Virus genome (UHGV): UHGV-0236088
From: a virus
Strand: one strand, 5' to 3'
DNA: 14,359 bases
Both the position numbers and the translations under genes were made by a program. Within the stretch, counting starts at the first letter, position 1, and each line of letters starts with the position of its first letter. This document shows positions 2,231 through 13,704 of this stretch, piece after piece. A model generated the notes under the pieces. The model had not been told where the DNA came from. It was given only the letters and a program-made list of their open reading frames with translations, and did not search any database.

Positions 2231-2276
2231 TTTATAACAAAATGGCGCCACCAGAACAATGCCATTTTGTAAACTT
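2231..2276 (-). promoter_or_regulatory. Promoter/operator-like element, copy 1 of a repeated intergenic motif
   Basis: Minus strand TTGTTC (2259-2254), 17 nt spacer, TATAAA (2236-2231). Flanked by the inverted 9-mers ACAAAATGG and CCATTTTGT. Shares a 40 bp module with 8403-8483. Confidence 0.35.
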
Positions 2277-2293
2277 TGAAGGGTAGATCACAT

Positions 2294-4222: not shown

Positions 4223-4452
4223 TCACCTGCCTCCCATCGGTCAATGCTGATTAAAAAGTCACGTATAGCGTGTCGTTCGTCGCGCGTTGGCTTGCGCTTT
4301 CTGTAGATCTTGAAGTCAAACCATTCTTTTTCTTGTTCGAAATCCATGTCGTAAGCAAGCGCCTCAATATATCCGCAGTCGTGATACTGGTACGCCACGC
4401 CAGCACGAACAAAAAAGCGGGTTTTATCCCGCTTGTGTTCATAAATACGCAT
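4219..4452 (-). CDS. Hypothetical protein, 77 aa
   Basis: GGGG 7 nt upstream of ATG at 4452. Confidence 0.5.
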   Translation of the reverse strand: MRIYEHKRDKTRFFVRAGVAYQYHDCGYIEALAYDMDFEQEKEWFDFKIYRKRKPTRDERHAIRDFLISIDRWEAGE

Positions 4453-6035: not shown

Positions 6036-6225
6036 CCTTCACCTCGCGACGATAGATTTCTACTGGCTTAACCGGAATAGCGTTAAAATCCCCTTCATCC
6101 AGTGCGGCAATAAACGTTAGCGCCAACCGTGCTTCAACACCGCTTAAATACTTGCACCATGCATCACCGTTATAATCTTCAAAAAGAATAATCACTTTTT
6201 TCATGTTTATCTCTTGTTGTTTCAT
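6025..6225 (-). CDS. Hypothetical protein, 66 aa, translationally coupled to Q
   Basis: TAATG overlap with the Q stop codon. An alternative ATG at 6204 would give MKKVIILF.... Confidence 0.45.
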   Translation of the reverse strand: MKQQEINMKKVIILFEDYNGDAWCKYLSGVEARLALTFIAALDEGDFNAIPVKPVEIYRREVKDEA

Positions 6226-6947
6226 TATTCACCCCGTGTCACTCGTTTAATTTCGTTATCAGCCTGCGCCTCTTCTTTGAACAATTCAGCAATGGCGTCT
6301 TCATAGAAAGCACGGTATTTCTTCCACCACGTTGATCGGCTTACCGGAAATACAAGCTGATTAACCGCACGCCGGACAAGATCTACAGGGAAACGCGAGT
6401 ACCCGCGCCCGCCGCAATGCTGGCACGTTTTGAACACTGGCATTTCCGCTGCTTCACTGGCTGCTTTATCCGGTATCTCGCCGCGCCCTTTGCATCGTTT
6501 ACAATGATTGCGAACTTTTCCATGCCCCTTGCATTTTTTGCAAAGGTGTTTTTCTCCGTAGTCGTCAAACGTAAATTTATATCCGCCGCAATCCATACAA
6601 GTTTTTTCTGTCGCGGCACTCTGGCAGTAATCCCGAAACGCGAAAACGGCAACAAGAATAATAAGATCATTGCGTTTGTCCTCGTCCAGCTCCATGATGT
6701 ATTCGTAATCTTTTGCCATAGCTCTTAAACGCTCTGTAAGCAAAACTACGGCCCTGTGTTTTTCGGCTTGCGATAATTCCATCTTCCCTAAAAAAGCGCT
6801 ATAACCAAGCTCTACGCGCGATTGCGCCATACCTGCTGCGGTTAGTGCATCAGTAGTATTAAGCGAGTCTGGGGACGTGCCCCGGCTTTCATCTGACAAA
6901 CGCGGTGATTTTGGGAGGTGGAATTTAAGAATAGATTCCAAATTCAT
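6225..6947 (-). CDS. Late-gene antitermination protein Q (Phage_antitermQ-type)
   Basis: 240 aa. N-terminus MNLESILKFHLPKSPRLSD..., the segment MAQSRVELGYSAFLGKMELSQAEK, DYCQSAAT, several CxxC pairs, GYSRFP and the C-terminal KEEAQADNEIKRVTR match the Q family of Stx and Qin-type lambdoid phages as I recall it. GGGGG RBS. Confidence 0.7.
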   Translation of the reverse strand: MNLESILKFHLPKSPRLSDESRGTSPDSLNTTDALTAAGMAQSRVELGYSAFLGKMELSQAEKHRAVVLLTERLRAMAKDYEYIMELDEDKRNDLIILVAVFAFRDYCQSAATEKTCMDCGGYKFTFDDYGEKHLCKKCKGHGKVRNHCKRCKGRGEIPDKAASEAAEMPVFKTCQHCGGRGYSRFPVDLVRRAVNQLVFPVSRSTWWKKYRAFYEDAIAELFKEEAQADNEIKRVTRGE

Positions 6948-7131: not shown

Positions 7132-7533
7132 TTACCACCACATATTAGTCAAGTATTCGTTAATATCCGGTAACAGGTCGCCGCGTTCGCGTACCTTGAT
7201 AAACAACCGCCCTCTTTTTACCTTCCGGCAGCGGACAAATTTCATTGCGTCAACCTGGCTATCATCAGCCCAAAAACCGGAATAAGTTATAGCGTCAAAT
7301 AATGCCTTCCCTACATTGTCAATATCGCGGCGTCTGTTATCTGGCGGTGCAATATACACCGTTATTGATAGCCTACACTTAAGATTAATTTTCAGATTAA
7401 GCAGTTTTATAATGTCTTTTACCTGCTCCCTGTATTCCTTACCTTCCTTGCTTATATAGTGGAAACCGCGCGAATGCCGGTAATATTTATTGTTCGATGG
7501 CGGGTAAGGCAGGCTAAAAGTATATTCATTCAT
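7132..7533 (-). CDS. rusA: RusA-family Holliday junction resolvase
   Basis: 133 aa. MNEYTFSLPYPPSNNKYYRHSRG...SKEGKEYREQV...PPDNRRRDIDNVGKALFDAITYSGFWADDSQV closely parallels E. coli RusA (LPWPPSNNRYYRH...DRRRRDLDN...FWLDDAQV). ATGA overlap with ninG. Confidence 0.8.
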   Translation of the reverse strand: MNEYTFSLPYPPSNNKYYRHSRGFHYISKEGKEYREQVKDIIKLLNLKINLKCRLSITVYIAPPDNRRRDIDNVGKALFDAITYSGFWADDSQVDAMKFVRCRKVKRGRLFIKVRERGDLLPDINEYLTNMWW

Positions 7534-8135
7534 GCTGCCTTTCTCCTTAAGGCGTCCAATTTAGCCTGATAGACTTTTATGATCTCCTTGCATTCTTCGA
7601 TCGCCCATTTATGAGTTTCGTTGTTGTTCTCCAGCGCTTCCACCCTGGCAAGGCCAATTTTCCTAATCAGCGCTGGGCGATATGCTTCTATGTTGCCATC
7701 TAATGTCTGGTTGCAGTGCCTGCATTGTTTGTGGCAATTATCCTCGTTAAAACGAAGGTGCCCGGCGGCGGCAACCGTTCTATAGTGTCCGGCATCTGCT
7801 CCGCATTGTTCGTAACAGTAAGTCCCGCATGATATGCACGGCTGACCCGCGTCACGTTCGCGGATATAGGCATTAAATACCGCTTGTGCCTGCTTCAACC
7901 AATAACTACGCGGATTTAACTGCTTCCGCTTCCGGTTGCGTTCTTCCCGCTGGCTATCACGGCGTTTCTTCCGTTCCATAGCCTTCATAGCCTTCTCACG
8001 GTCGCGGCATAGCTGATCAAACTTCAGCTCTTCCAGACACTCATCACTGCACCACGTTTGATTGTGATATTTAGGCTCAAAAAAAACGCCGCAGCACTTG
8101 CAACGGCGTCTTATTGGTTTTTTAGGTTTCTGCAT
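7530..8135 (-). CDS. ninG: NinG/Rap-like recombination-promoting nuclease
   Basis: Start set at ATG 8135 with AGGGGTGG RBS (MQKPKKPIRRRCKCCGVFFEP...). Motifs RRRCK, WCS.EC, PRSYWLKQAQ, IRERD, PCISCGT, DAGHYRT, LRFNE, HKQC, CNQ, IEECK and YQ.KL follow lambda NinG nearly block for block. The 30-codon N-terminal extension in the ORF track is rejected. Confidence 0.8.
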   Translation of the reverse strand: MQKPKKPIRRRCKCCGVFFEPKYHNQTWCSDECLEELKFDQLCRDREKAMKAMERKKRRDSQREERNRKRKQLNPRSYWLKQAQAVFNAYIRERDAGQPCISCGTYCYEQCGADAGHYRTVAAAGHLRFNEDNCHKQCRHCNQTLDGNIEAYRPALIRKIGLARVEALENNNETHKWAIEECKEIIKVYQAKLDALRRKAA

Positions 8136-8149
8136 AAAAACCACCCCTA

Positions 8150-8326
8150 TTATTTTTGATTCTCTGTTTCGTTCAGCCTTTCGGTGTGTCCGGCCCTTAG
8201 CCAATGATCTAAGCATTCGTTGCACTCGTTACAGCCTCCTTTCTTTGTGCTGCATACATTGCACATTGCACGCATGACGCTTTCTCGTTCATAGTCGTCA
8301 TGCCATTGGTAATTATCAAAAGACAT
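8150..8326 (-). CDS. NinF-like small cysteine-rich protein, 58 aa
   Basis: AAAGGGAGGGAG RBS before ATG at 8326. MSFDNYQWHDDYERESVMRAMCNVCSTKKGGCNECNECLDHWL resembles lambda NinF as recalled (YQKESVERAL.C..C...C..C), and it sits immediately before ninG. Confidence 0.45.
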   Translation of the reverse strand: MSFDNYQWHDDYERESVMRAMCNVCSTKKGGCNECNECLDHWLRAGHTERLNETENQK

Positions 8327-8402
8327 AATGCTCCCTCCCTTTAAGGTGATTTCTACGCATTTCAGCGCTGCCGGATTTTTAAAGAGCATTTCGTTTGCTT
8401 GA

Positions 8403-8483
8403 AGTATACAAAATGGATACGCCAGAACAAGGTGAATGGCGCCATTATGTGATCCACATCACGCAATGGCGCCATTTTGTAAA
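8403..8483 (-). promoter_or_regulatory. Promoter/operator-like element, copy 2 (upstream of the NinF-NinG-RusA-Q block)
   Basis: Minus strand TTGTTC (8430-8425), 16 nt spacer, TATACT (8408-8403). Two perfect 12 bp palindromes AATGGCGCCATT at 8435-8446 and 8465-8476, centres 30 bp apart. 9-mers ACAAAATGG and CCATTTTGT at each edge. Confidence 0.4.
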
Positions 8484-8485
8484 TT

Positions 8486-9250
8486 TCAGTCCGGTAAAAC
8501 GCGGTTAAGCGTAGTACGATTGATGGCCCGGTCGTTAGCCAGGAATACAGCACGGGCAAAGCCGCGCGGCGTTAGTGAGCGGATCATCTTAGTGCGTTTC
8601 GACTTTCCTCCTAACTTCGCGTGCTGTTTGCTGTCTTCCCATTCATCCGGCATAGGTACAGGCCGGAATAGCGGCTGCTTAAATCCATTCCCGCACCAGA
8701 TACAAGTTTTCTTCGTGTATGCGTCGCGGTCGGCGATGTATTCCGGGAAAGCAGGATGTTTGTCGTCTTCCGGCAGGTAGCCACCGTAAGCGCACGGATT
8801 GAAGATAAAATCCGGCTTACGCCATAACGTTGACAGTGCGCCCACCGGATTTTCCACCATCCACGGGACGTGATACATGTCAGCCAGCGTTTCTACCAGT
8901 TTTGCGTTATATGCCGCCTTCACCTGGAAGTCAGGATCTTTTTCACGCTTGCTGGCAAACCAACGAGCGCCGGACACGGCTAGATGGTCGCATGGCGGGA
9001 AGGCCAGAATAATGTCAGGATCTGGATAAACAGACAAATCAGGGGAGAACATCACCAGGAAATGGCTGTCAATCCATACGTTAACGTATTCAATATTCGG
9101 ATGAATGATTTTTACGCCTTCATAGTCGCCGTGGTTAGCGCCGTCATAGTTGAAGCAATAACACTTATAGCCAGCGTCAGCCCAATCTTTAACGGCGTAC
9201 CCGCTGCCGTCGTACAACGACCACACCACCCAATTTTTAAGCCCGCTCAT
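8486..9250 (-). CDS. C5-cytosine DNA methyltransferase-like protein (short, atypical motifs)
   Basis: 254 aa. Motif I-like SLYDGSGYAV, followed by AGYKCYCFNYD; motif IV-like AFPPCDHLAVSG (PPC where PCQ is usual); motif VI-like MVENPVGALS (ENP where ENV is usual). GAGGG RBS. ATGA overlap with the upstream gene. Confidence 0.5.
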   Translation of the reverse strand: MSGLKNWVVWSLYDGSGYAVKDWADAGYKCYCFNYDGANHGDYEGVKIIHPNIEYVNVWIDSHFLVMFSPDLSVYPDPDIILAFPPCDHLAVSGARWFASKREKDPDFQVKAAYNAKLVETLADMYHVPWMVENPVGALSTLWRKPDFIFNPCAYGGYLPEDDKHPAFPEYIADRDAYTKKTCIWCGNGFKQPLFRPVPMPDEWEDSKQHAKLGGKSKRTKMIRSLTPRGFARAVFLANDRAINRTTLNRVLPD

Positions 9251-10772: not shown

Positions 10773-11024
10773 TTAGAAATAATCCTGATCAGTTCCCCAT
10801 CGGTTGTTTAAATACCCCACCAGCCAGACAAAACGCTCGATACTGATTAGCGGGGCGACCTTGCGATAATGCTTGTCTAATATCAGCCGCGTGGCTTTAT
10901 CGCTGTAGCCGTTCTTTTCCACCTCCGCTTTGCAGGCCGAAAGCGCCGCGCGGGCGGCAGTTTTTACGGCGTTAAATTGCGGCTCTGACATATTGAATAA
11001 AGCCATAGGATCACCATGTATCAT
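10773..11024 (-). CDS. Hypothetical protein, 83 aa
   Basis: ORF track entry. Weak RBS; the start could be the internal ATG giving MALFNM.... Confidence 0.4.
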   Translation of the reverse strand: MIHGDPMALFNMSEPQFNAVKTAARAALSACKAEVEKNGYSDKATRLILDKHYRKVAPLISIERFVWLVGYLNNRWGTDQDYF

Positions 11025-11247
11025 CCCAATCCGGCGCGGCAGTCAAGCAAAAACCAATGAATGCGCTCACAGCCAATAAAGCGCGGGCTGCAAAAAGAAT
11101 ATTCCCAATGTTGTTAAATTCAGGCAGCGACCACGTAATAAACATACCCCCCAGCATAATAACACCGATAACAGTCAGGGCCGCCAGGAAAACAAAAAGC
11201 GTAGCCAAAAGCCACGCCCCCAACCAGTTAAAAAAGCTCTTAAGCAT
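11011..11247 (-). CDS. Small membrane protein, about 78 aa, two or three predicted transmembrane helices
   Basis: Start set at ATG 11247 with GAGGACG RBS (MLKSFFNWLGAWLLATLFVFLAALTVIGVIMLGGMF...). The ORF-track start at 11262 is a TTG. Confidence 0.45.
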   Translation of the reverse strand: MLKSFFNWLGAWLLATLFVFLAALTVIGVIMLGGMFITWSLPEFNNIGNILFAARALLAVSAFIGFCLTAAPDWDDTW

Positions 11248-11248
11248 T

Positions 11249-11452
11249 TTAAACGTCCTCAATTACCCCGCCTTTCACGCGCTCTTTAATATCCCATACG
11301 TGAGGCTTGCATATTTCTTGATAGTAGTGATCCGGCCTGCTGCCGAAATACCATTTGCCATCCATATAAAAATAAACGCCAGAAAAATTTCCTGGCGCTG
11401 CCTTTGTTGCTGCTTCTGGAATTTTCCATTCCATGTAATGTTTAAATATCAT
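11249..11452 (-). CDS. Hypothetical protein, 67 aa
   Basis: ORF track entry. The RBS is distant, so the start is uncertain. Confidence 0.4.
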   Translation of the reverse strand: MIFKHYMEWKIPEAATKAAPGNFSGVYFYMDGKWYFGSRPDHYYQEICKPHVWDIKERVKGGVIEDV

Positions 11453-11734: not shown

Positions 11735-11953
11735 TTAAGCCTCAATAACACCGTAATCAAACGTGCCTAAATACCGTTCGATACTTACAACCTCAATACC
11801 ATCAATACACCGTTTCCACACAGACACCTGGCTTTCATTTTCTCTGAAGTGCATATTAGAAAGCACTTCATCGGCTGGATAGTCTTTCCCGGCGACGTAG
11901 GCATCGTGACCTACGCCACCTTCTACGCAATAAAGCATCAATTCGCGTTCCAT
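11735..11953 (-). CDS. Hypothetical protein, 72 aa (start moved to internal ATG)
   Basis: GGAGGAAG 6 nt upstream of ATG at 11953 (MERELMLYCVEGG...). Region 11954-12052 is then intergenic and carries the repeated 13-mer. Confidence 0.45.
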   Translation of the reverse strand: MERELMLYCVEGGVGHDAYVAGKDYPADEVLSNMHFRENESQVSVWKRCIDGIEVVSIERYLGTFDYGVIEA

Positions 11954-12052
11954 TTTTGCTTCCTCCGCACCGTAAACCTTTTGATTTCGGCTTACAAAAT
12001 GGATATGCAATTACAATACAAAATGTATATTTATGTGATCGGAATTACTCGG

Positions 12053-13590: not shown

Positions 13591-13704
13591 TCACATGTTA
13601 GTGATGAGTTTAATGATCGCTACCGTGATATAAAGCGATACGCTGAGATACAGCACGGCGATAGATAAAGCCGCAAGCAATGCGGCAATTTTTGCAAGGT
13701 TCAT
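13591..13704 (-). CDS. Candidate single-pass hydrophobic peptide, 37 aa (below the ORF-track cutoff)
   Basis: GGAGGGTGG upstream of ATG at 13704; ATGA overlap with the upstream stop. Translation MNLAKIAALLAALSIAVLYLSVSLYITVAIIKLITNM. Confidence 0.4.
   Translation of the reverse strand: MNLAKIAALLAALSIAVLYLSVSLYITVAIIKLITNM

Follow-up and report, generated by a model that had tools for sequence, protein, structure and literature searches.

The window, by which we mean the whole 14,359-nt stretch of DNA that was analysed (UHGV virus genome UHGV-0236088), belongs to a temperate mEpimmI coliphage of the mEp021 group. Near its middle, a gap at 8327–8485 separates two minus-strand genes: upstream, a 254-aa gene (8486–9250) annotated in relatives as a DNA cytosine methyltransferase, with no Pfam match, and downstream a 58-aa ninF-like ORF (8150–8326), which is NinF by mEp021 annotation only. 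The latter is followed on the same strand by NinG (7530–8225), RusA (7132–7533) and Q (6225–6947, antiterminator family PF03589). A preliminary description made from the sequence had named a NinF-NinG-RusA-Q block here; Pfam confirms NinG, RusA and Q, and the annotation of relatives agrees with the block.

The part of the gap next to the methyltransferase gene (8403–8484, hereafter cassette A or region A) holds operator-like sites, a CRP-like site and a promoter-like core. Between this cassette and ninF lies an element resembling a nut site (8355–8388). The Q-dependent late promoter was considered as an identity for the locus and rejected, as it lies elsewhere (approximately 268–296, with a terminator at 221–240) and lacks the motif described below.

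A repeated motif, a promoter-like core and a probable nut site

A string search of both strands found the 9-mer ACAAAATGG or its complement five times in the window, at 2237–2245(+), 2262–2270(−), 8408–8416(+), 8472–8480(−) and 11994–12002(+). Four of the positions given in the preliminary description were exact, while the first copy had been placed one base off, at 2238–2246. Dinucleotide-preserving shuffles of the window contained on average 0.26 copies (maximum 3) and reached five in 0 of 200 cases, so that the proposal of a non-random motif withstood a shuffled-sequence control. As also proposed, each copy falls between minus-strand ORFs, in the gaps 2196–2293, 8327–8485 and 11954–12052; one-mismatch copies at 8442–8450 and 12018–12026 had been overlooked. 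The motif was likewise present in the equivalent gaps of related phages, and was near-invariant across the region-A alignment of 31 distinct orthologous sequences. Enrichment and conservation together bear out its reading as an operator-like cis element.

The 9-mer forms the centre of a 17-bp pseudo-dyad with the consensus (G)TATnCA-TTT-TGTATAC and an approximate two-fold symmetry, as seen in GTATCCA-TTT-TGTATAC at 8404–8420 and ATATACA-TTT-TGTATTG at 12014–12030. When the position weight matrix (PWM) of the 17-mer was compared with its own reverse complement, CA/TG proved symmetric, the outer positions moderately symmetric, and C/T at positions 5 and 13 asymmetric; the half-sites are also asymmetric, one having CCA where the other has TGTA. 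This PWM, trained only on mEp021 sites, found seven intergenic sites in the window, all within regions A, B and C (see below for B and C). In mEp021, 19 of its 24 matches were intergenic, against an intergenic share of 12.5% of the genome, and shuffled sequences gave 4.6 matches. A crude dyad-only scan (ATACA-N3-TGTAT, at least 8/10 matches) was too noisy and did not rise above background genome-wide. Scanning IMG/VR with the exact 14-mer TCCATTTTGTATAC returned at least 120 matches, mostly single ones on contigs outside mEpimmI loci, and was uninformative; a full-text literature search with the motif strings yielded only unrelated primers, and Rfam, run on the whole window at gathering thresholds, reported no family.

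Three operator-like 17-mers occur in region A. The distal one, O_A3 (8468–8484; plus strand GGCGCCATTTTGTAAAT; PWM score 19.8), begins 2 nt past the methyltransferase stop codon and holds the 9-mer at 8472–8480; its TTTACAAAATGG is nearly invariant in the 31 orthologues. O_A2 (8438–8454; PWM 12.8) is weaker, with the core ACATAATGG at 8442–8450, and overlaps the promoter-proximal half of the CRP-like site; its CACATAATGGCGC is invariant in the region-A orthologues. The proximal O_A1 (8404–8420; gene strand GTATCCATTTTGTATAC), which holds the 9-mer at 8408–8416, has the top PWM score in the window (22.8). It agrees at 15 of 17 positions with the site that borders the −35 of the principal early promoter in mEp021 and in L003, a twin contig of the window. 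Its layout, an operator abutting a −10, matches OL of lambdoid prophages that carry homologues of the mEp021 repressor Rep021.

The promoter-like core described earlier as TTGTTC-16-TATACT on the gene strand was found as such, with TTGTTC at 8430–8425 and TATACT at 8408–8403. O_A1 fills the spacer between the two hexamers and overlaps the −10. In the 31 orthologues the TTGT of the −35-like hexamer (8425–8430, minus strand) is invariant next to hypervariable bases, and the −10-like hexamer (8403–8408, minus strand) is invariant throughout, with a predicted transcription start near 8396. We refer to the predicted promoter as P_A; its elements are the operator-like CCATTTTGT, the CRP-like half-sites GTGA/TCAC, TTGTTC and TATACT. 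The position of the −35-like hexamer recurs in cassettes B and C and in pL, whose layout (TTGATC-16-TAAACT, then nutL) P_A parallels. A promoter scan at standard stringency did not call P_A because its −35 matches the consensus at only three of six positions. The gap as a whole is about 90% conserved, and conservation alone therefore cannot delimit the elements; within it, however, invariant motif positions contrast sharply with saturated variable ones. The suggestion that the gap upstream of ninF looks like a regulated promoter thus agrees with the predicted architecture of operator-like sites and −35/−10 hexamers.

Just downstream of P_A lies a boxA/boxB element (8355–8388) that the preliminary description had missed. 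Its boxA, TGCTCTTTAAAAATCCGG (8371–8388, minus strand), resembles CGCTCTTTA, and the 19 nt of ATGCTCTTTAAAAATCCGG recur unchanged in the boxA region that follows pL (nutL) in L003. The boxB stem-loop, GCGC-UGAAAU-GCGU (8355–8368, minus strand), has an A-rich, GNRA-like loop; its outermost pair covaries among the 31 sequences (G-U in 23, A-U in 4, C-G in 4), and no variation occurs at the remaining three. In mEp021, nutR2 lies downstream of the methyltransferase gene and supports antitermination by an N-like protein, as summarised in PMC11893012. The element at 8355–8388 is most likely this published nutR2. It resembles lambda-type nut sites in the order of boxA and boxB, in the A-rich loop and in a boxA identical to that of nutL. 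The nut sites of mEp021 are reportedly the subject of Valencia-Toxqui et al. 2023 (Arch Virol 168:92). The predicted P_A is not mentioned in PMC11893012 (Negrete-Mendez et al. 2025), and the supplements of that paper hold no nut or operator sequences.

CRP-like sites and cassettes B and C

The 22-mer TTGCGTGATGTGGATCACATAA at 8445–8466 is the best CRP-like site in the window (20/24), with a 16-bp core, CGTGA-N6-TCACA, at 8448–8463. The window core CGTGATGTGGATCACA agrees with TGTGA-N6-TCACA at nine of ten consensus positions, and 23 of 43 orthologues agree at all ten. When the test site was the 16-mer whose end falls exactly 31 nt upstream of the proximal copy of the 9-mer, a match of at least 9/10 was found in 42/43 A copies, in which the 4-bp centre is hypervariable, whereas a 9/10 core match has a background frequency of 1.7e-4; matches of at least 8/10 were found in 25/32 B copies and 39/39 C copies. 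In each of the three cassettes the site lies exactly 17 nt upstream of the −35-like hexamer, placing its centre 25 bp upstream of that hexamer; the diverged phage L180 keeps this geometry even though the intervening sequence is unrelated.

A CRP centre 25 bp upstream of the −35 matches lac P1, although spacers of 16–17 bp put it at about −59.5/−60.5 from the predicted start rather than at −61.5. P_A is also like lac P1 in its TGTGA-N6-TCACA with a free centre, weak −35 and reasonable −10, and unlike it in standing in a phage genome, overlapped and flanked by candidate repressor operators. We therefore read the geometry of the three cassettes as putatively class I, of the lac P1 kind, and cassette A as probably an internal promoter that responds to sugar starvation through CRP. 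The possibility that GTGA-N6-TCAC is itself a repressor operator was rejected, as these sequences lie about 60 bp upstream of promoters, are absent from pR and occur just once in the switch region.

Cassette B (2231–2292, minus strand) has a CRP-like site, TGTGATCTACCCTTCA (2277–2292), whose right half is degenerate in the window, while relatives have a perfect TGTGATCTGTATCACA. It is followed by O_B2 (2258–2274, 9-mer at 2262–2270), a −35-like TTGTTC (2254–2259), O_B1 (2233–2249, 9-mer at 2237–2245) and a −10-like TATAAA (2231–2236). Cassette C (11989–12049, minus strand) repeats the order with the CRP-like site AGTAATTCCGATCACA (12034–12049, left half degenerate in the window), O_C2 (12014–12030, ATATACATTTTGTATTG), a −35-like TTGTAA (12011–12016), O_C1 (11990–12006, 9-mer at 11994–12002) and a weak −10-like TAAGCC (11989–11994). 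An OL operator with exactly the sequence of O_C2 occurs in a Tatumella lambdoid prophage that carries a gene for a Rep021 homologue. Operator centres are 25 bp apart in B, 24 bp in C and 25 bp between sites 6 and 7 of mEp021; those of region A, centred at 8412, 8446 and 8476, are spaced 34, 30 and 64 bp, as against the canonical 24–25 bp. Cassettes B and C, together with further copies in mEp021, appear to be paralogous operator/CRP/promoter modules. Common descent may account in part for the presence of a CRP-like site in each of these paralogues.

In different relatives the conserved cassette B has non-homologous genes on either side, as would be seen at a recombination joint, and the repeats might accordingly be relics without a function, for instance joints of mosaic recombination or duplicated junk. 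The strong enrichment of the motif, its invariance beside saturated variable positions of the same gap and the fixed internal geometry across diverged paralogues and the very diverged L180 make this highly improbable.

The 12-bp palindromes and the hairpin

The two perfect 12-bp palindromes AATGGCGCCATT, with centres 30 bp apart, are present at 8435–8446 and 8465–8476 as first described, and had been taken for operators bound cooperatively by a dimeric helix-turn-helix (HTH) regulator. Their identity, their spacing directly upstream of the promoter-like core and the invariance of the AATGGCG core in relatives would suit such a role, yet orthologues typically carry the non-palindromic forms AATGGCGTCATT and AATGGCGCTTTT: of the 31 sequences, 2 have a palindrome as their first 12-mer and 1 as the second, and only the twin contig of the window has both in perfect form. 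No further AATGGCGCCATT palindrome was found in cassettes B or C or elsewhere. Behind the 30-bp periodicity stand two operator-like direct repeats, ACA(A/T)AATGGCG.., with dyad centres at 8476 and 8446, 5.5 bp off the GGCGCC centres; overlap with these ACA(A/T)AATGG copies and with a hairpin stem explains the conservation. Cooperative binding to the palindromes thus has very little to recommend it; judged from the alignment, the perfect palindromes appear to be a strain-specific by-product and not operators. Since the palindrome is not kept in relatives, we also rejected the idea that GGCGCC is a C-box or is recognised by the neighbouring methyltransferase.

The palindromes flank the CRP-consensus site, which the preliminary description did not report, and form the arms of a 42-bp inverted repeat (8435–8476, minus strand) with the core GTGAT-gtgg-ATCAC. 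This repeat, likewise passed over in that description, corresponds to TERM_4/t4, a predicted terminator annotated in mEp021 (MH706966), and t4 is listed as a predicted terminator of mEp021 in PMC11893012. The palindromes may be understood as the GC-rich parts of two operator-like direct repeats flanking the CRP palindrome, which would jointly form the t4 hairpin. A 96-nt RNA fragment of the window folded with a minimum free energy (MFE) of −33.4 kcal/mol and z = −4.3; in one relative z was −5.3, and in relatives the MFE structure takes in an outer stem formed by the 9-mers. After the stem the window reads CAUUCACC (variant GCGCCAUU), without a U-run, whereas most relatives read GCGCUUUU. The window thus has the hairpin of an intrinsic terminator but no U-tract, and a terminator scan does not report it; in relatives, three to five U follow the stem, making a borderline terminator. 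The window copy may be a hairpin variant in which the U-tract was lost.

The locus could therefore act at the RNA level, the hairpin being the intrinsic terminator t4 or an RNase III site on the upstream early transcript and the outer ACAAAAUGG/CCAUUUUGU arms a long-range stem, with the likeness to operators and a CRP site incidental. The annotation of TERM_4 exactly here in MH706966, the prediction of t4 in PMC11893012, folds far more stable than those of shuffled sequences, the outer 9-mer stem in the MFE fold of relatives and the GCGCUUUU after the stem in most of them all speak for such a role, as do single-sided changes in the stem, all of which keep gene-strand pairing (G-U to G-C, U-A to U-G). 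Against it, an RNA covariation test on the 31 sequences found no double-sided compensatory changes in either the hairpin or the outer 9-mer stem, and the stem has a C-A mismatch in 17/31 sequences and one pair unpaired in 29/31. Besides the U-tract missing from the window copy, the 9-mer stands alone at pR and in the gap before the helicase gene, and is directly repeated in cassette C and at mEp021 site 7, arrangements that make pairing impossible. The CRP-like palindromes of B and C lack terminator features, and the motif stands at OR/OL beside repressor genes of unrelated prophages. An action through RNA alone is therefore unlikely in our judgement; weak terminator function in relatives would fit the operator and CRP interpretation as well, making the RNA-level reading only partly a rival to it.

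Rep021 and the proposed control of region A

No regulator is encoded in the window, as had been noted; judging from its position in L003, the gene for Rep021 lies about 5 kb past the upstream end. Rep021 is a true homologue of lambda CI with a well conserved C-terminal (cooperativity) domain (3BDN, E = 4e-19) and is 93–99% conserved in all motif-carrying loci. The adjoining HTH protein in the Cro position, gp14, is only 32–39% identical in most of these motif-keeping loci, and was rejected as the binder for that reason. Homologues of Rep021 with the same or a similar recognition helix were found in a very diverged mEpimmI-like phage and in Citrobacter, Enterobacter, Serratia and Tatumella prophages; a scan of GTDB genomes with Rep021 peptide words found no relatives.

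In four heterologous prophages, 17-mers of the form (T)ATAC(A/G)TTT(T/C)GTAT(A) flank the Rep021 homologues at canonical OR and OL. Each OR has three sites with centre spacings of 33 and 25–26 bp. At OL, 25 bp separate the members of the promoter-proximal pairs, with one site abutting the −10 and one overlapping the TTG of the −35. Because the same 17-mers stand at OR/OL beside Rep021 homologues on four unrelated backbones, they are very probably Rep021 operators, and comparison of these loci makes the 9-mer most likely the core of a binding site for this lambda-CI-like repressor. In mEp021 and L003 themselves, motif sites lie over the pL −10, at −42 and +2..+18 of the repressor promoter, and abutting the pR −35; a tripartite cluster separates the early promoter from the divergent promoter of the repressor. 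At pR only one site is recognisable, centred near −42, a position that in lambda pRM is activating and not repressing.

The number and dispersal of the sites are unusual for a CI-type repressor, and the 17-mer might instead be bound by a non-CI factor (Cro-like, middle-gene regulator or host), or be no more than a spacer/−10 block inherited by duplicated sigma-70 promoters. Gene-strand copies are indeed always fused to a −10-like hexamer, CCATTTTG-TA(A/T)A(C/A)T, and pL, A, B and C look paralogous; CTTGCA-N4-TGCAAG palindromes downstream of pL could serve as alternative operators. A promoter block is nevertheless hard to reconcile with copies in both orientations in gaps of about 30 bp that leave no room for a promoter (mEp021 6062, 7720 and 12606), and another binder with a motif that is invariant while gp14 is hypervariable and that is found at OR/OL only beside Rep021-family genes, with lambda-like spacing, in four otherwise unrelated prophage backbones. 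Compared by eye, no host-factor consensus known to us (TyrR, OmpR, CpxR, PhoP, IHF, Fis, DnaA, ArgR, MarA) fits the 17-mer, nor do those that we know for sigma-32, -54, -28, -S and the extended −10. We regard these non-CI readings as rather unlikely, and the CI-like repressor Rep021 and host CRP as the likely regulators of region A.

The presence, enrichment and conservation pattern of these sequences, their fixed geometry, the co-occurrence of the motif with one repressor family and the covariation in boxB lead us to consider it reasonably probable that the gap at 8327–8485 is a composite control region combining Rep021 operators, a CRP-type promoter and nutR2. The 17-bp operators would be recognised by a Rep021-family repressor whose gene lies outside the window. 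Since the proximal operator fills the spacer and overlaps the −10 of the sigma-70 promoter, repressor dimers, probably acting cooperatively on region A, would silence P_A in a lysogen. Once the repressor is absent, cAMP-CRP, centred 25 bp upstream of a weak −35, would activate P_A, and transcripts from about 8396 would at once copy the boxA and boxB of nutR2. The N-like protein Gp17 could then render these transcripts resistant to terminators and carry them into ninF, ninG, rusA and Q. L180 keeps the operators and the CRP-like site and has no nut site at this place, so that this coupling of promoter and nut site is not universal.

A broader mode of regulation is conceivable, though we put it forward only tentatively: a single CI-type repressor would, in the manner of P1 with its many dispersed operators, silence many internal promoters, with pL, A, B, C and moron promoters of the tail region being CRP-dependent promoters of class I. 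Under such a scheme cAMP would gate lysis, nutR2 would be P_A's own loading site for antitermination, and CRP control of pL, through a site overlapping the repressor's promoter, could be the physiological signal for the lysis-lysogeny decision of a family reported not to be UV-inducible.

Like lambda OL/OR, the candidate sites are 17-bp pseudo-palindromes overlapping early promoters at the −10 or the −35. The likeness extends to the tripartite cluster noted above, to the 24–25 bp centre-to-centre pairs in B and C, which recall OR1-OR2 and suit pairwise cooperativity, and to the proposed cognate protein, a CI homologue with HTH and S24 domains. They differ in sequence (TATCACCGC in lambda, ATACA-TTT-TGTAT in mEpimmI), in the non-canonical spacings of region A, and in their spread beyond two operator regions, to internal early-operon promoters (A, B, C), short gaps between genes and the region of the tail genes. 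Sites dispersed over a phage genome are also known for P1 C1, a protein unrelated to CI/LexA-type repressors, and as the 13-bp stoperators of L5 and Bxb1. P1 has one immunity repressor acting at 22 dispersed 17-bp operators on many separate promoters, but its operators are asymmetric (PMC8546580), whereas the sites here are pseudo-symmetric and often paired. Stoperators likewise occupy many short intergenic gaps, some of them promoterless, but are asymmetric and bound by a monomeric two-domain repressor that blocks elongation (PMC9283540); the repressor here is CI-like. In mEp021, 30-bp promoterless gaps do hold sites (6062, 7720, 12606), but both orientations occur, the orientation bias being only partial, unlike that of stoperators, and most sites overlap −10-like hexamers of promoter cores. 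Direct action of host CRP on several phage promoters, coupling phage development to host metabolism, has a precedent in T1 (Laganenka et al. 2019, PMC6737242). That phage belongs to another family, and CRP represses its pir, dam and recE (PMC6737242), whereas the geometry here predicts activation.

The individual parts of the region are all of known kinds, and if the reading of dispersed operators and CRP control fails, what remains is an ordinary conserved intergenic control region. The mEpimmI family was defined only recently, and its phages are common in the human gut; PMC11893012 gives no promoter or operator sequences for it and never mentions CRP. That paper treats nutR2 as a third nut site in the rightward operon, without an explanation; in our reading a promoter of its own precedes nutR2, with a predicted start about 12 nt upstream, and nutR2 would then play a role like that of nutL behind pL. 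If correct, our interpretation would supply the operator sequence of the mEpimmI immunity repressor and a map of the family's internal promoters, give a rationale for the puzzling third nut site, and link the carbon status of the host, through cAMP-CRP, to expression of the late-gene activator Q. It would also mean that a CI-type repressor works through many dispersed operators, beyond OL and OR.

Genomic setting and distribution of the motif

The window is 84–89% identical to the Escherichia phages mEp554, MagusPhagus, mEp010, mEp013, mEp044, mEp021 and mEp515, and the IMG/VR contig L003 is identical to it over the region of interest. These relatives are included in mEpimmI, a recently described group of non-lambdoid, Nus-dependent phages (PMC11893012). 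Window genes are on the minus strand throughout; Pfam searches confirmed NinG, RusA, the Q-type antiterminator (PF03589) and Dam methylase, and the gap with region A (8403–8484 within 8327–8485) lies between a 254-aa gene, annotated as a cytosine methyltransferase in relatives, and a ninF-like ORF. In the more distant phages L042–L053 (methyltransferase identity 57–62%), another conserved element, AAATAGCAC(T/A)5GTTAAAA followed by a GC-rich hairpin, stands 0–80 nt past the methyltransferase gene, and its first part resembles, by eye, a MarA/SoxS/Rob 'marbox' or a boxA.

Other hairpins that resemble terminators and have U-tracts lie on the gene (minus) strand at 11375–11399, 11195–11221, 13670–13686 (the position equivalent to TERM_2/t2 of mEp021) and 4415–4434. 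A probable Q-dependent late promoter (minus strand, 221–296; TTGTAG at 291–296, 17 nt, TAAAAT at 268–273) is followed ~30 nt 3' by the strong terminator ACCCGGCCCCCGCGCCGGGTTTTT (221–240), the equivalent of the experimentally shown t5 of mEp021, and then by the holin start. The layout is similar to lambda pR'-tR', but the Q gene is ~6 kb upstream of it, and no 9-mer was found at this promoter (221–296). Iteron-like tandem repeats (units CATGACCC / TCATGACC) within or beside the replication gene of the leftward operon, at ~1330–1405 of locus L006 and correspondingly in relatives, probably mark the replication origin.

The operator-like 9-mer singled out in the preliminary description does occur five times in the window, counting its complement, against 0.26 expected, and none of 200 dinucleotide-preserving shuffles gave five. 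All five copies are intergenic and lie where they had been placed, except that the first, at 2237–2245, had been placed one base off. One-mismatch copies are also present at 8442–8450 (ACATAATGG) and 12018–12026 (ACATTTTGT). With its flanks, the 9-mer forms a 17-bp pseudo-dyad, exemplified by GTATCCA-TTT-TGTATAC (8404–8420) and ATATACA-TTT-TGTATTG (12014–12030). In mEp021 (50 kb), 7 of 10 exact 9-mers are intergenic; these include a copy that abuts the strong rightward early promoter at its -35 (GTATACAAAATGGA-TTGACT-17-TATATT), and copies in region A, in the gap upstream of the helicase gene and in three divergent-promoter gaps of the tail region. One-mismatch copies overlap the -10 of TTGATC-16-TAAACT, the leftward early promoter that precedes nutL, and another adjoins the repressor promoter's -35. 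Scanning mEp021 with a PWM built from its own sites gave 24 matches (4.6 in shuffled sequence), 19 of them in the 12.5% of the genome that is intergenic, a partly circular figure as training sites are counted in. Applied to the window, an mEp021-only version of the PWM found 7 intergenic sites, every one in region A, B (2231–2292) or C (11989–12049). Site centres are 25 bp apart in B and 24 bp apart in C; those of A (8412, 8446 and 8476) are separated by 34, 30 and 64 bp.

Cassette B, with its equivalents in L003–L016, is conserved while both flanking genes vary among relatives (at least five upstream contexts and two or three downstream), which suggests a mosaic recombination joint. The genes downstream of B and C (1923–2195 and 11735–11953) share similar leaders and first codons, CG(A/G)TGCGGAGG..AAAAATG(A/G)AACGC, and neither protein has a Pfam match. 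Paired 17-mers 25 bp apart, together with CRP-like sites, also occur in the mEp021 gaps that separate opposite-strand 'moron' clusters from the next tail genes (37646–37709, 42022–42093 and 43917–44019). In the first two gaps, a promoter-like core faces the moron genes and the CRP-like site is at a class I position (-60.5 or -70.5) relative to it.

A candidate repressor for the motif

Two proteins of the early region were compared across motif-keeping loci. The Cro-position HTH protein gp14, encoded by the first gene of the leftward operon, is only 32–39% identical in most of them; Rep021, the CI-like repressor of the mEp021 group, is 93–99% identical in all. The hypervariable gp14 gene, adjacent to the conserved repressor gene, lies at ~2.0–2.3 kb of each locus in L003–L056. 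Rep021 is truly homologous to lambda CI, and its C-terminal domain is well conserved (3BDN, E = 4e-19). L180, a very diverged mEpimmI-like phage, encodes a homologue 56% identical with an identical HTH (ITKGGLSHWLNGRREPN), and the motif recurs in its pR, pL/pRM, C-like and A-like gaps.

This homologue and others came from a search outside the mEpimmI group, and their genomic contexts were retrieved. Prophages of Citrobacter, Enterobacter, Serratia and Tatumella, whose backbones are quite different (one is fully lambdoid, with cro, cII, O, P and N), encode proteins 41–51% identical to Rep021 with similar recognition helices, each flanked by (T)ATAC(A/G)TTT(T/C)GTAT(A) 17-mers at canonical OR and OL positions. 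Their OR clusters have three sites each, with centre spacings of 33 and 25–26 bp, and their promoter-proximal OL pairs have a spacing of 25 bp, with one OL site abutting the -10 and another overlapping the TTG of the -35. One Tatumella OL site equals window 12014–12030 at every base. Mainly because this co-occurrence spans unrelated backbones, we assign the motif, on comparative sequence grounds, to the Rep021 family of repressors.

In mEp021, the repressor ORF start (ATG, 11167; region 11153–11185) appears to fall on the predicted transcription start, so that the mRNA would be leaderless, as for lambda cI, and an exact 9-mer lies inside repressor codons 2–6 (MKTKW), where an OR3-like autoregulatory operator would be. 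In L180, an exact 9-mer overlaps the boxA/boxB spacer of a nutR1-like element (10815–10860) with a lambda-type boxB loop, GGCTCTTTAACAAAATGGAACGCUGAAAAGCG; this is probably coincidence.

The region A hairpin and CRP-like sites

Both AATGGCGCCATT palindromes and the TTGTTC-16-TATACT core are present in region A, where they had been read, together with the 9-mer, as a regulated promoter of the NinF-NinG-RusA-Q block. The operator idea stands for the 9-mer and falls for the palindromes: in an alignment of 31 distinct orthologous region A sequences, the 12-mers are usually AATGGCGTCATT (first) and AATGGCGCTTTT (second), and both are perfect palindromes in the window's twin contig only. They are instead the two arms of one long inverted repeat with the core (T/C)GTGAT-NNNN-(A/G)TCACA, whose 4-bp centre is hypervariable.

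This repeat could act in RNA or in DNA. The hairpin is annotated as TERM_4 in GenBank MH706966 and corresponds to the predicted terminator t4 (PMC11893012), and its RNA fold is very stable (z = -4.3 to -5.3). Pair counting found no double-sided compensatory change in either the hairpin or the outer 9-mer/9-mer stem, and a C-A mismatch in 17 of 31 sequences. In the window copy, CAUUCACC replaces the GCGCUUUU that follows the hairpin in relatives, so by definition this copy is not an intrinsic terminator.

At the DNA level, the window's hairpin core agrees with 9 of the 10 positions of the CRP consensus TGTGA-N6-TCACA, and in 23 of 43 orthologues all 10 agree; by a crude weighted-consensus score, the core is the window's best CRP-like site. 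Matches of at least 9/10 occur in 42 of 43 copies of region A (background frequency of a 9/10 match, 1.7e-4), and matches of at least 8/10 in 25 of 32 copies of region B and 39 of 39 of region C; in the window, the degenerate half-site is the right one in B and the left one in C. The 16-mer ends exactly 31 nt before the promoter-proximal 9-mer in each of A, B and C, 17 nt before a -35-like TTGTnn, and the sequence between CRP site and -35 is unrelated among the three. L180, with ~65–70% nucleotide identity left in a few genes only, again has TTTGA-N6-TCACA 17 nt ahead of the -35 position in the equivalent gap. The distance from site centre to -35 hexamer, 25 bp, is that of lac P1. Since the B and C palindromes lack terminator features, all three sites are more economically read as putative DNA-level elements than as RNA-level ones.

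A further CRP-like sequence, TGTGACTTGCATCAAA (mEp021 11123–11144; L003 ~2330–2350), overlaps the repressor promoter's -35 (TTGCAT); relative to the -35 of pL, the divergent early promoter, it is 26 bp upstream. With this placement, CRP could favour pL and occlude the repressor promoter simultaneously.

Predicted promoter, nut site and proposed regulation

Variation among the aligned sequences of the highly conserved gap A is confined to the CRP centre, 5 nt following the hairpin and 6–7 nt within the spacer, with no change in TTGT or (G)TATCCATTTTGTATACT. The order -35, 8 nt, CCATTTTG, -10 is common to A, pL and the OL of the heterologous prophages. About 14 nt past the -10 begins ATGCTCTTTAAAAATCCGG, identical to the boxA region 3' of pL, and after it comes a boxB hairpin that covaries at its outer pair (G-U, A-U, C-G). 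The position of this element agrees with that of nutR2, the published third nut site, downstream of the methyltransferase gene (PMC11893012); promoter, operators and CRP go unmentioned in that study.

From these features and their comparative behaviour, we infer all binding and transcription steps of the following model. In a lysogen, Rep021 dimers would occupy the three region A sites, the proximal one (8412) occluding the spacer and -10 and the middle one (8446) overlapping the promoter-proximal half of the CRP site. The outer pair (8412 and 8476) is 64 bp apart, ~6.1 helical turns; for lambda CI, cooperative looping is possible when sites stand an integral number of turns apart. When repressor is absent, cAMP-CRP at a class I position would activate the promoter with its weak -35, and at nutR2 the transcript would acquire Nus factors and the N-like Gp17, then continue through to ninF, ninG, rusA and Q. 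The hairpin and U-run of relatives may also stop part of the transcription arriving from upstream.

None of the parts is new in kind: CI-type operators, class I CRP promoters and N-type nut sites are all known. What is unusual is that CI-type operators are dispersed over many internal promoters and systematically paired with CRP sites, and that a nut site lies behind one such module. P1 C1 likewise has dispersed operators, 22 of them (PMC8546580), and the dispersal of mycobacteriophage stoperators is comparable (PMC9283540). Phage T1 provides a precedent for CRP control of phage promoters, with CRP as a repressor (PMC6737242). Promoter-nut coupling is not universal, because the equivalent gap of L180 has no nut site. 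With a promoter directly upstream of it, the third nut site would have a rationale like that of pL-nutL.
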